From Synechococcus sp. UW140 (GTDB lineage Bacteria; Pseudomonadota; Gammaproteobacteria; Burkholderiales; Burkholderiaceae_C): a DNA stretch of 64,000 nt. Both the position numbers and the translations under genes were made by a program. Every line of letters begins with the position of its first letter. Position 1 is the first letter of the stretch. Shown one piece after another: positions 55,414 through 57,183 of this stretch. The notes beneath the pieces are model-generated. The model was not told the origin of the DNA. It ran no database searches and worked only from the letters and a program-made list of their open reading frames with translations. Where the stretch lies: contig CALRQR020000012.1 of assembly GCA_943370375.1 (NCBI GenBank), positions 4,968-68,967 on the forward strand. The letters are read 5' to 3'.

Positions 55414-56001
55414 ATGGCCACGGATTCCGCATCGATCAACCTCACGCATCACTTCCTCATCGCCATGCCCGGGATGGACGACGAAGCTTTTGCCAAAAGC
55501 GTGGTCTATATGTGCGAACACAGCGACAGGGGCGCCCTGGGCCTGATCATCAACAAACCCAGCGACATCAACCTCAAGAACCTGTTTGACAAGGTCGAGT
55601 TGCCCTTGCGCCGCGACGACCTGTCTCAAGCTCTGGTGTTCCAGGGCGGCCCGGTTCAGACCGAGCGCGGTTTTGTGCTCCACGAATCCATGATGCCTGG
55701 CAACGAATCGGTCTACGCCTCCACCATGACGATTCCCGGCGGCCTGGAGATGACCACCTCCAAAGACGTCCTCGAGGCGCTGTCCACCGGCGCCGGCCCG
55801 CGCAAAGTGTTTGTCTCGCTGGGCTACTCCGCCTGGGGTGAAGGCCAGCTTGAATCCGAAATTTCCGACAACAGCTGGCTCACCGTGGCGGCCGATTTGG
55901 GCGTGATCTTCGACACGCCGGTCGAGCAACGCTACGACAAGGCCCTCATGCTGCTGGGCCTGCAAAGCTGGATGCTCTCGCCCGAGGCCGGCCACGCATG
56001 A
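55414..56001 (+). CDS. algH: YqgE/AlgH family (UPF0301) protein
   Basis: LTHHFLIAMPGMDDEAFAKSVVYMCEHSDRGALGLIINKP. Confidence 0.92.
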   Translation: MATDSASINLTHHFLIAMPGMDDEAFAKSVVYMCEHSDRGALGLIINKPSDINLKNLFDKVELPLRRDDLSQALVFQGGPVQTERGFVLHESMMPGNESVYASTMTIPGGLEMTTSKDVLEALSTGAGPRKVFVSLGYSAWGEGQLESEISDNSWLTVAADLGVIFDTPVEQRYDKALMLLGLQSWMLSPEAGHA

Positions 56002-56030
56002 GCCTTGCGGCCATGCCCTCCCAGGGCCCA

Positions 56031-56296
56031 AGGGCCTGTCATCATATAAATCGCCCCCGCGCTGGGGCTGCAAGGGGTGCGGCGCTAGGCGCGGCCCGCC
56101 GGCCGGGGTCGTCCCCGGTCAAGGGCTGCAACGACGCGCGGCGCCCCTTGCGGCCCCAGCCCTGCGGGTGGCACCCGGAAAAGGCCGCACTCGTTGTTGC
56201 AAAGCCTCACCGGGGATTGCCCCGGCTTCGTTTTGCGCCTAGATTGCGGCCTTTTCCGGGTGCCACGCGGGGGCGATTTATATGATGACAGGCCCT
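56031..56296. repeat. 52-bp perfect inverted repeat (left arm split by a 107-bp palindromic insertion) spanning the algH-ruvX spacer
   Basis: 56245-56296 is the exact reverse complement of 56031-56061 joined to 56169-56189. The inserted segment 56062-56168 is itself an inverted repeat (CTGGGGCTGCAAGGGG / CCCCTTGCGGCCCCAG). The loop is 56190-56244. Confidence 0.85.
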
Positions 56297-56683
56297 AGCC
56301 TCAATACCTTTCTGGCTTTCGACTTCGGTCTCAAGCGCACCGGCGTTGCCACCGGCAACGTCCTCACCCGCACCGCCTCCCCCCAACCCACCATTGCCGC
56401 CGAAGGCAGCGACGCACGCCTCAAAGCCGTCGAGGCGCGCATCAAAGAGTGGCAGCCTGATGCTCTGGTGGTCGGCATTCCCTTTCACCCTGACGGCGCC
56501 AGCCACGACAATACCGTGCGGGCCCAGAAGTTCGCCCGCCAGCTTCGTGGGCGCTTTGGCCTTCAGGTCTTTGAGGTGGATGAGCGCTACAGCACCACCG
56601 AGGCCCTGGCAGGCGGTGCAACCGATGCCGACGCGGCCTCGGCCTGCATCATCCTCGAGCAGTTTTTAAGGAGTTTTCCATGA
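56282..56683 (+). CDS. ruvX: Holliday-junction-resolvase-like pre-16S rRNA nuclease YqgF
   Basis: FLAFDFGLKRTGVATG ... VVGIPFHPDG ... DERYSTTEA. The ATG lies inside the right arm of the inverted repeat. Confidence 0.92.
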   Translation: MMTGPSLNTFLAFDFGLKRTGVATGNVLTRTASPQPTIAAEGSDARLKAVEARIKEWQPDALVVGIPFHPDGASHDNTVRAQKFARQLRGRFGLQVFEVDERYSTTEALAGGATDADAASACIILEQFLRSFP

Positions 56684-57183
56684 GCAGTCTGACCCTGGAC
56701 GCCGAGGCGCTGTACAGCGACCTGCTGCGCGGCATGCGACAGCAACTGGCGTCTTACCCCCTGCCGCCCAAGCTGGTCGGCGTGGCTTCGGGCGGCGCCT
56801 GGCTGGCGCAGCGCCTGCAAAAAGACCTGGGCCTGGAGGGCGAGGCCGGTGTGCTGTCGTCCTCCATGCACCGTGACGATTTCTCGCAGCGCGGCCTGTC
56901 CTCCAGCGGCCAGACCCTGCTGCCCTTTGACGTGAACGGCGCGCATCTGGTTGTGGTCGACGACGTGCTCTATACCGGCCGTACCATCCGCGCGGTGCTC
57001 AATGAGCTGTTTGACTATGGCCGCCCCGCCAGCGTCAAGCTGGTCGTGCTGGTAGACCGGGGCGGGCGCGAGTTGCCCGTGCAACCTGATCTGGCCGTGG
57101 CGCGCGTAGCCTTGCCTGCTTCGCAATCGCTCGAGCTGGCCCGCGCAGAAGACGGCAAGTTCAGCTTCCAGGTTCAGGGCTGA
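56680..57183 (+). CDS. pyrR: bifunctional pyrimidine operon regulator / uracil phosphoribosyltransferase
   Basis: PRTase motif [15 protein letters not shown]. 167 aa, with an ATGA overlap with ruvX. Confidence 0.92.

Follow-up and report, generated by a model that had tools for sequence, protein, structure and literature searches.

In the 64,000-nucleotide window (the whole stretch of DNA that was analysed, from whose first letter all positions are counted), algH, ruvX and a pyrR-like gene follow one another on the forward strand, and a long palindromic repeat lies at the junction of the first two. RuvX (YqgF) is essential in E. coli, and its gene is single-copy here, with one match in this genome. 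The features of the locus are as follows:

55414-56001, forward strand: algH (yqgE-like, DUF179; ORF list; Pfam PF02622, E = 9e-49)
55998-56030, forward strand: 5' end of the ancestral ruvX, 11 codons (MSLAAMPSQGP), severed from the remaining gene
55998-56285, forward strand: bridging ORF of 95 codons, running from the old ruvX ATG across the element to TGA 56283-56285
56031-56296: palindromic mobile element (the ruvX copy), 266 nt, 'ATGATG' subfamily, detected at full length with nhmmer and covariance model (CM) R1
56031-56061: left arm of the outer stem, 31 nt (repeat search); helix 1 of the family, in which 24/32 pairs show double changes
56062-56159: internal hairpin A with tip CCGGGGTCGTCCCCGG (fold; a homologous hairpin in 12/12 aligned copies)
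56160-56168: conserved linker CCCTGCGGG, family pattern CCC-N3-GGG (copy alignments; helix 7 of the consensus)
56169-56265: internal hairpin B (repeat search, alignment of copies)
56210-56235, forward strand: tip of hairpin B followed by CTTCGTTTTG, terminator-like (consensus scan, alignment of copies)
56266-56296: right arm of the outer stem, 31 nt, bearing the new translation start region (repeat search)
56269-56273, forward strand: SD-like GGGGG, 8 nt ahead of ATG 56282; GGAGG in sister copies
56282-56287, forward strand: ATGATG, element-borne start codons of the present ruvX, overlapping the stops TGA 56283-85 and 56286-88
56282-56683, forward strand: present ruvX (yqgF) CDS, 133 aa (Pfam PF03652, residues 9-130)
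56680-57183, forward strand: phosphoribosyltransferase gene, pyrR-like, next gene of the string (ORF list, Pfam)

Stop and start codons overlap, as is expected of translationally coupled genes, at three places: the algH stop TGA 55999-56001 with ATG 55998 (ATGA 55998-56001), the end of the bridging ORF with the present ruvX start (ATGA and TGATG, 56282-56288), and the ruvX stop with ATG 56680 of the next gene (ATGA 56680-56683). The first and the last of these link algH, ruvX and the pyrR-like gene, and by them the string is predicted to have once been wholly translationally coupled. The bridging ORF, which meets a second TGA in its frame at 56286-56288, matched no Pfam family.

The inverted repeat stood up to a scripted comparison: as the original prediction had stated, the 52 nt at 56245-56296 match, letter for letter, the reverse complement of 56031-56061 plus 56169-56189. 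The repeat search returned the same outer repeat (56031-56061 / 56266-56296, 31 nt, 100%) and an inner one of 28 nt (93%). Also as described, the ruvX ATG lies in the right arm (ORF from ATG 56282, algH ending at 56001), the segment 56062-56168 forms a palindrome of its own, and the two CCGGGG-N4-CCCCGG tips are found. The 21-bp perfect stem of hairpin B (56169-56189 / 56245-56265) surrounds the conserved core TTGCAAAGCC...GTTTTGCGCC; its tip was considered as a conserved terminator of the family and rejected, as the main subfamily lacks the T-run. Folding of the 286-nt region, a check suggested at the outset, predicted a strong Y-shaped structure of -232.5 kcal/mol with z = -18.3 against dinucleotide shuffles, a stability therefore far outside chance. 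By our own estimate, a perfect inverted repeat of at least 20 nt within 500 nt is expected ~0.002 times per 4.4-Mb genome. Both arms of the ruvX copy are single-copy in this 4.4-Mb genome.

A dispersed family of palindromic elements

Copy searches and alignments show 56031-56296 to be a member of a dispersed family of mobile elements that are palindromic, non-coding and MITE-like. Searching with nhmmer and an alignment of the copies retrieved 13 full-length family members in this genome, including the ruvX copy (nhmmer E = 6e-41; CM R1, 184 bits), and a genome-wide scan for perfect inverted repeats added elements 266-270 nt long, whose arms include AGAACCTGTTCACGGTCTAAACGG. The layout consists of an outer stem of ~30 bp beginning AGGGCCTGT, a ~100-nt hairpin, a short linker, and a second ~100-nt hairpin with the core given above. 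With CM R1, copies were found in 54 of 101 congeneric species genomes, many of which carry at least 19, and in 73 of 150 genera of the GTDB family, nearly always at full length (265-272 nt); the relatives together hold hundreds. Three copies lie on a plasmid of Comamonas odontotermitis, and the arm was also found in MAGs whose labels read Polaromonas, Rubrivivax or Pseudomonadota. The family, a length-invariant and strongly co-varying unit of ~267 nt, is spread over about half of the Comamonadaceae genera.

In an alignment of 12 copies, hairpin A, the CCC-N3-GGG linker and hairpin B occupy the same columns throughout. The segment 56062-56168 had been taken for a nested 107-bp insertion; because hairpin A and the linker, which make it up, are a regular module found in every family member and in the same columns of all aligned copies, it is no second insertion. 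The same alignment disposes of the pair CCCCGCG/CCCTGCGGG as an imperfect target duplication, CCCTGCGGG being the conserved linker of the family. L130, a 178-nt relative, has no hairpin A but keeps its 3' half-stem (TTGCAACCTCGG), and hence would represent a deletion and not a pre-insertion form. Both outward ends of L130 (7133-7310 in a 'Rubrivivax sp.' MAG) are in frame with the divergent genes that flank it, one of which is of the Methyltransf_28 kind and the other SDR-like. The perfection of the arms at ruvX had been thought to imply a recent event or selection. Near-perfect arms are, however, usual in the family (perfect terminal arms of 22-31 nt among the copies of this genome), and one family site is also occupied in two other species.

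Several further observations concern individual copies. The loop of the inner hairpin of the ruvX copy matched the starts of two contigs, C20 and C24; the end of C9 and the start of C20 together form element X, and the starts of C26 and C24 form element Y, each of ~267 nt. X and Y are nearly identical, have ~150 nt in common and account for assembly breaks at four contig ends. X links purL-side sequence to C20, and a dihydroxy-acid-dehydratase-like gene follows 20 nt downstream of Y. Copy X itself sits within another repeat family of ~110 nt, which has dozens of copies per genome in relatives such as G208, G191 and G065. At C5:247593-247642 (L046), a perfect 50-nt hairpin consists of outer arms only (AGAACCTGTTCACGGTCTAAACGG CT ...) and has no counterpart at the orthologous site of relatives; from its sequence it would be a minimal derivative or else a form that is mobile by itself.

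The properties expected of MITEs were found as follows. The element is small, mostly 265-272 nt (i.e., below ~500 bp), and has no coding gene of its own, most copies being interrupted by stops; it has terminal inverted repeats, namely, the perfect arms mentioned above and helix 1 of the consensus; and it is dispersed, with 13 copies and presence/absence differences at orthologous sites. Flank-joined queries revealed clean empty sites in close relatives for the majority of the copies, including those at ruvX, C13a, C2, C22, C18, C7 and Y, and some orthologous sites are occupied in relatives. The C2 site holds a full element in this genome, G129 and G165; in G124, G190 and G084 (L096, L107, L110) it holds terminus remnants of 11-13 nt (GGAACAGGATCC, GAACAGGTTCC), which look like excision or deletion footprints. 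A left-arm remnant is present at the C13a site of G129.

Any target duplication would amount to 3 bp at most. Among nine empty sites compared, only C22 was clean (TAA): the empty site reads GAGTT-TAA-GGGC and the occupied one TAA, GAACC...GGTTC, TAA, if the element is taken as GAACC...GGTTC. The C13a copy is flanked by the pair CTA/TTA, and the remaining sites are ambiguous as to duplication. At ruvX, only a net gain of 266 (or 263 or 269) nt is compatible with the reading frame, which would mean a duplication of 0-3 bp. A TNA or CTAG target of the IS5 type is a lead only. When inverted repeats spaced by 0.5-6 kb were sought in this genome, none had the family ends of an autonomous partner, so that 'MITE' is used here as a description and not as a proven mechanism; a look-alike at C3:162309-164474 was discarded because it encloses ordinary genes.

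Insertion into ruvX and the origin of its present start

When orthologous algH-ruvX spacers were aligned, as had been proposed, the element was absent from the junction in 28 of 28 congeners (17 aligned, and the 11 closest relatives at the locus, with 88-93% identity across the 3' end of algH). At these empty sites, the algH stop overlaps the ruvX ATG (GCATGA) in most congeners aligned, and the N-terminus of RuvX reads MSLAAMPS...(14-15 residues)...TFLAFDFG, the sequence ATGAGCCTTGCGGCCATGCC(T/C)TCC... continuing directly into the TFLAFDFG codons. In this genome, ATGAGCCTTGCGGCCATGCCCTCCCAGGGCCCA (55998-56030) is followed by the 266-nt element and then by AGCCTCAATACCTTTCTGGCT. Since joining 56030 to 56297 yields an in-frame RuvX with an N-terminal stretch as long as in G129, the comparison shows that the 266-nt element was inserted after codon 11 of the ancestral ruvX. 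The sole canonical starts ahead of the FDFG motif are ATG 56282 and ATG 56285, both in the right arm. Read from the sequence, the old start is shown to be cut from the RuvX domain, and ATGATG to be the sole usable ruvX start now.

Copies with the same ends were found elsewhere. G061 contains a copy of ~90% identity with ends ...GATTTATATGATGACAGGCCCT between divergent genes for a regulator and an ABC-transporter binding protein, G015 contains two more copies with ATGATG ends, and shortened copies are present in other MAGs. The ends of the G061 and G015 copies are identical (ATATGATGACAGGCCCT). The end consensus of the ATGATG subfamily is GGAGG-8 nt-ATGATGACAGGCCCT (in full GCGGAGGCGATTTATATGATGACAGGCCCT), with a canonical GGAGG as against GGGGG in the copy of this genome. 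A metagenome scan with the 21-nt end gave one match, at the same site as in G015 C20. Because these subfamily ends lie at unrelated loci elsewhere, the ruvX start site arrived with the element, i.e., the comparison of ends shows the ruvX start codons to have been brought by it. The original prediction had listed a MITE-like element as a possible donor of the ruvX start, and this explanation is upheld by the 28 empty sites, by the 12 further copies in this genome and the hundreds in relatives, and by the ~90% identical copy and others with ATGATGA-bearing arms at unrelated loci of other species. The proposed search of the genome and its relatives for copies returned those 12 family members as well as empty sites. 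A selfish palindromic element has thus split single-copy ruvX, and the gene apparently lives on via the start that the element carries.

The junction shows other additions as well. In L014 (G012) and L019 (G011), a different element of ~190 nt with inverted repeats of its own lies at the algH/ruvX overlap and seems to have duplicated CATGAG, so that stop and start both survive. Spacers of ~60-80 nt are found at the junction in G003/G007 and G015/G018. Judging from these sequences, the algH-ruvX junction is a recurrent insertion site.

Expression of the split gene

A plausible route by which the split gene may be expressed is a relay of coupled translation. Having finished algH, ribosomes would begin again at ATG 55998, which is preserved, and read the 95 codons of the bridging frame across the element, melting the 52-bp helix and the terminator-like tip; at UGA 56283-85, where the stop overlaps AUG 56282/56285, they would terminate and then re-initiate on ruvX. 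If no ribosomes passed, a structure of -230 kcal/mol would keep the SD and AUG locked, and RNase III might cut this structure as well. On the arrangement of the reading frames, we lean slightly towards such a relay as the way in which ruvX is expressed. The old ATG 55998 and its ATGA coupling to algH are intact, and frame 0 is open up to the TGA that overlaps ATG. An open frame of 95 codons arises by chance in ~19% of shuffles of the GC-rich element.

A parallel exists in G015, where the element lies after codon 2 of mogA (ATG ACC). The ATG of mogA overlaps the stop of darP, an arrangement that is also the native one in this genome. An 86-codon ORF uses the element frame seen at ruvX and terminates at the corresponding TGA, again overlapping ATGATG, after which mogA resumes as MMTGPADAVRIGIVSVSDRAS... 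(MoCF_biosynth, Pfam). As read from these sequences, the mogA split is an independent event of the same kind as that in ruvX. Among only 8 related full-length copies of the ATGATG and sister subfamilies, the bridging frame is open in 2/2 intragenic copies and closed in 6/6 intergenic ones, which have one to five stops in it (hand-calculated Fisher p ~0.04). The ATG of the element lies 15 nt from its end, so that insertion at a codon boundary sets the distal gene in frame and the stub in the open frame. The mogA parallel, the restriction of the open frame to intragenic copies, and this geometry together give the relay more weight.

The outward ends of the ATGATG subfamily run in frame for >100 codons into a gene in 7 of 13 cases, as compared with 0 of 10 in the sister subfamily, the loci being few and partly related (G015 C20 and L131 are the same insertion). 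The downstream genes concerned include ruvX, mogA, a Methyltransf_28 gene and a Rieske oxygenase gene, among others. The tally includes loci with the element upstream of the native start, for which simple survivorship is no explanation, and it is suggestive with regard to the relay.

Alternatively, a promoter in the loop of hairpin B might give rise to an mRNA without the left arms, on which the start would be free and both the relay and the helix irrelevant. MITEs such as Correia elements do bear outward promoters (PMC10969869), and a weak sigma-70-like pair can be read by eye (TTGCCC at 56217-22, 17 nt, TAGATT at 56240-45; 8/12 matches). However, a promoter scan found none in the element at its threshold, the -35-like hexamer is not conserved in sister copies (TCACCC in G015, TTACCC in G061), and an internal promoter leaves unexplained why the bridging frame is open in intragenic copies only. 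This makes an internal promoter unlikely, though it deserves consideration.

It is still less probable that selection keeps the hairpin perfect as a cis-regulatory or RNA-processing device for ruvX, the second option of the original prediction, acting through sequestration of the start and/or as an RNase III site. The SD-like run and both ATGs do lie within a perfect 31+21-bp helix of an extremely stable fold, so that burial of the start would be structurally sound, and RNase III cleaves Correia elements where their ends pair (PMC10969869). Nevertheless, the structure is missing from the algH-ruvX junction of all 28 congeners, it occurs at 12 other loci in this genome and hundreds elsewhere without orientation bias, and near-perfect arms are the norm of the family. 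Being absent in congeners and generic to the family, the structure would exert any regulatory effect as a by-product of insertion. Overall, the locus is probably best explained by insertion of a mobile element in ruvX, an element-borne start, expression by the translational relay, and homogenisation of the arms at the DNA level.

A wider possibility, to which we give little credence at present, is that the ATGATG subfamily is adapted to settling at gene 5' ends in translationally coupled operons while leaving the genes alive. At either end it would present an outward GGAGG-8 nt-AUGAUG start cassette, and one frame could remain open, ending in a UGA that overlaps the AUG. If so, insertion at a codon boundary would turn one gene into a stub ORF plus a restarted gene, making the element a portable translational coupler whose strategy of limiting damage resembles in spirit that of self-splicing introns and inteins. 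Within the literature reached, such a strategy appears to be undescribed for MITEs. The intragenic position and the bridging frame were both absent from the original prediction; what is new at this locus comprises the former, the SD and ATG supplied by the element, a bridging ORF that ends in a stop/start overlap, and the independent recurrence at mogA. The ruvX and mogA loci offer a testable system for the effect of ribosome traffic on very stable mRNA helices, for chained termination-reinitiation via a junk ORF, and for gene starts made by MITEs.

Several known repeat systems resemble the present element in part. Correia elements (NEMIS) of Neisseria are 104-157 bp long and have a TA duplication. 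The element described here is unrelated to them in sequence, measures ~267 nt, and has two internal hairpins and no clear duplication. What they share is a small, non-coding unit with long terminal inverted repeats, a long mRNA hairpin (predicted here), and a location in or beside genes; Correia elements are MITEs that are co-transcribed with their neighbours, cut by RNase III at the paired terminal repeats, and alter gene expression (PMC10969869). REP2 of Neisseria and the IR repeats of Borrelia bring a promoter, RBS and ATG to a downstream gene (PMC3184786), and thus share with this family the provision of RBS and ATG by a dispersed repeat; they are, however, not whole-element palindromes within a CDS, and their descriptions mention neither a bridging ORF nor a stop/start overlap. 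Rickettsia palindromic elements (RPE) and other intragenic MITEs exemplify the tolerance of a palindromic repeat in a protein-coding gene (PMC10969869, PMC3184786). An RPE adds an in-frame internal peptide to the translated protein, whereas here the gene is split and its distal part restarted from the element-borne start. For Chunjie, the parts of the literature available to us describe a MITE within an operon that is apparently preserved (PMC10969869, PMC3184786). According to the same partial accounts, Chunjie is A+T-rich and 178-235 bp long, with 21-bp TIRs and 9-bp direct repeats, unlike the present element. As far as those accounts extend, none of Correia, REP2/IR, RPE and Chunjie is described as splitting a gene that is then restarted via a bridging ORF.

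REPs are 20-40 nt and REPINs ~100 nt long, with hundreds of copies and a linked RAYT gene (Y1 transposase). The REP/BIME/REPIN repeats and the present family are alike in being hairpin-forming intergenic repeats with co-varying stems that are probably handled as single-stranded DNA, but a unit of ~267 nt does not fit the size of REPs or REPINs, and the copy numbers here are in the tens. The betaproteobacterial repeat element BRE is ~90 bp long and often tandem, and it was rejected as the same family, with 0/5 conserved 8-10-mers of the present family found in the two supplementary files of the BRE paper (PMC3110155). Strings from the family core sequence had no match in the searchable literature. 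A MITE has been reported in Polaromonas sp. JS666, of the same bacterial family (Mattes et al. 2008, as cited in PMC10969869); it may belong to the very family described here, which would then possibly already have a name.

Structure conservation, probably at the DNA level

RNAalifold gave a consensus of 88 pairs, 55 of which show compensatory double changes, as compared with 27.9 in shuffles and 13-22 when the partners were slid by 1-3 columns; in the named structure, 94.3% of cells pair as against 78.5% in shuffles. The covariance model gives scores on either strand, the copies point both ways with respect to adjacent genes without bias, and a hand count of pair types in the outer stem found G·U-type and A·C-type mismatches at about the same frequency, i.e., no strand preference. 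These three observations fit a DNA-level palindrome better than a strand-specific RNA. Covariation was accordingly rejected as proof of RNA function, also because gene conversion between paralogues can import both sides of a pair.

Conversion of this kind has probably occurred at the orthologous C22 site, which holds the canonical 269-nt form in this genome and a form of 334-336 nt in G129 and G124; the long form has an extra 66-nt module in otherwise ~98% identical sequence. As judged from these alignments, the length difference is best explained by gene conversion between paralogous copies, and gene conversion can bring in both sides of a 'compensatory' change together. From this we infer that the complementarity of the arms is upheld at the DNA level, by hairpin-related repair and conversion between copies, and not by selection for control of ruvX.

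A structured non-coding RNA gene or riboswitch-like leader, in place of mobile DNA, would account for the strong covariation in all helices and for the fixed length of ~267 nt over 73 genera. Apart from the two orientations, the scoring of both strands and the balance of wobble and A·C mismatches in the hand-counted outer stem, this is opposed by the presence/absence differences, footprints and deletion derivatives at orthologous sites, and Rfam 15 returned sub-threshold chance matches only for the ruvX copy and five other copies; such an RNA is therefore very improbable. A local inverted duplication of the ruvX 5' end by template switching, to which the likeness of the left flank CAGGGCCCAA to the right end CAGGCCCTA might point, is scarcely credible given that G061, G015 and MAGs have these 31-nt arms and the interior at loci unrelated to ruvX and that the arm sequence is missing from ruvX of relatives. 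An assembly artefact is likewise contradicted by the above data.

There are practical consequences for genome annotation: the element breaks assemblies, gene callers will mis-annotate it, and the 95-aa 'protein' at this locus is an artefact of the insertion. The extra module seen at C22 is not confined to that site. A 334-nt variant at C14:118551-118884 has an extra 66-nt double-palindrome module inside hairpin A, and this variant is multi-copy, with copies of 334-338 nt in G065, G060, G089, G050 and G124.
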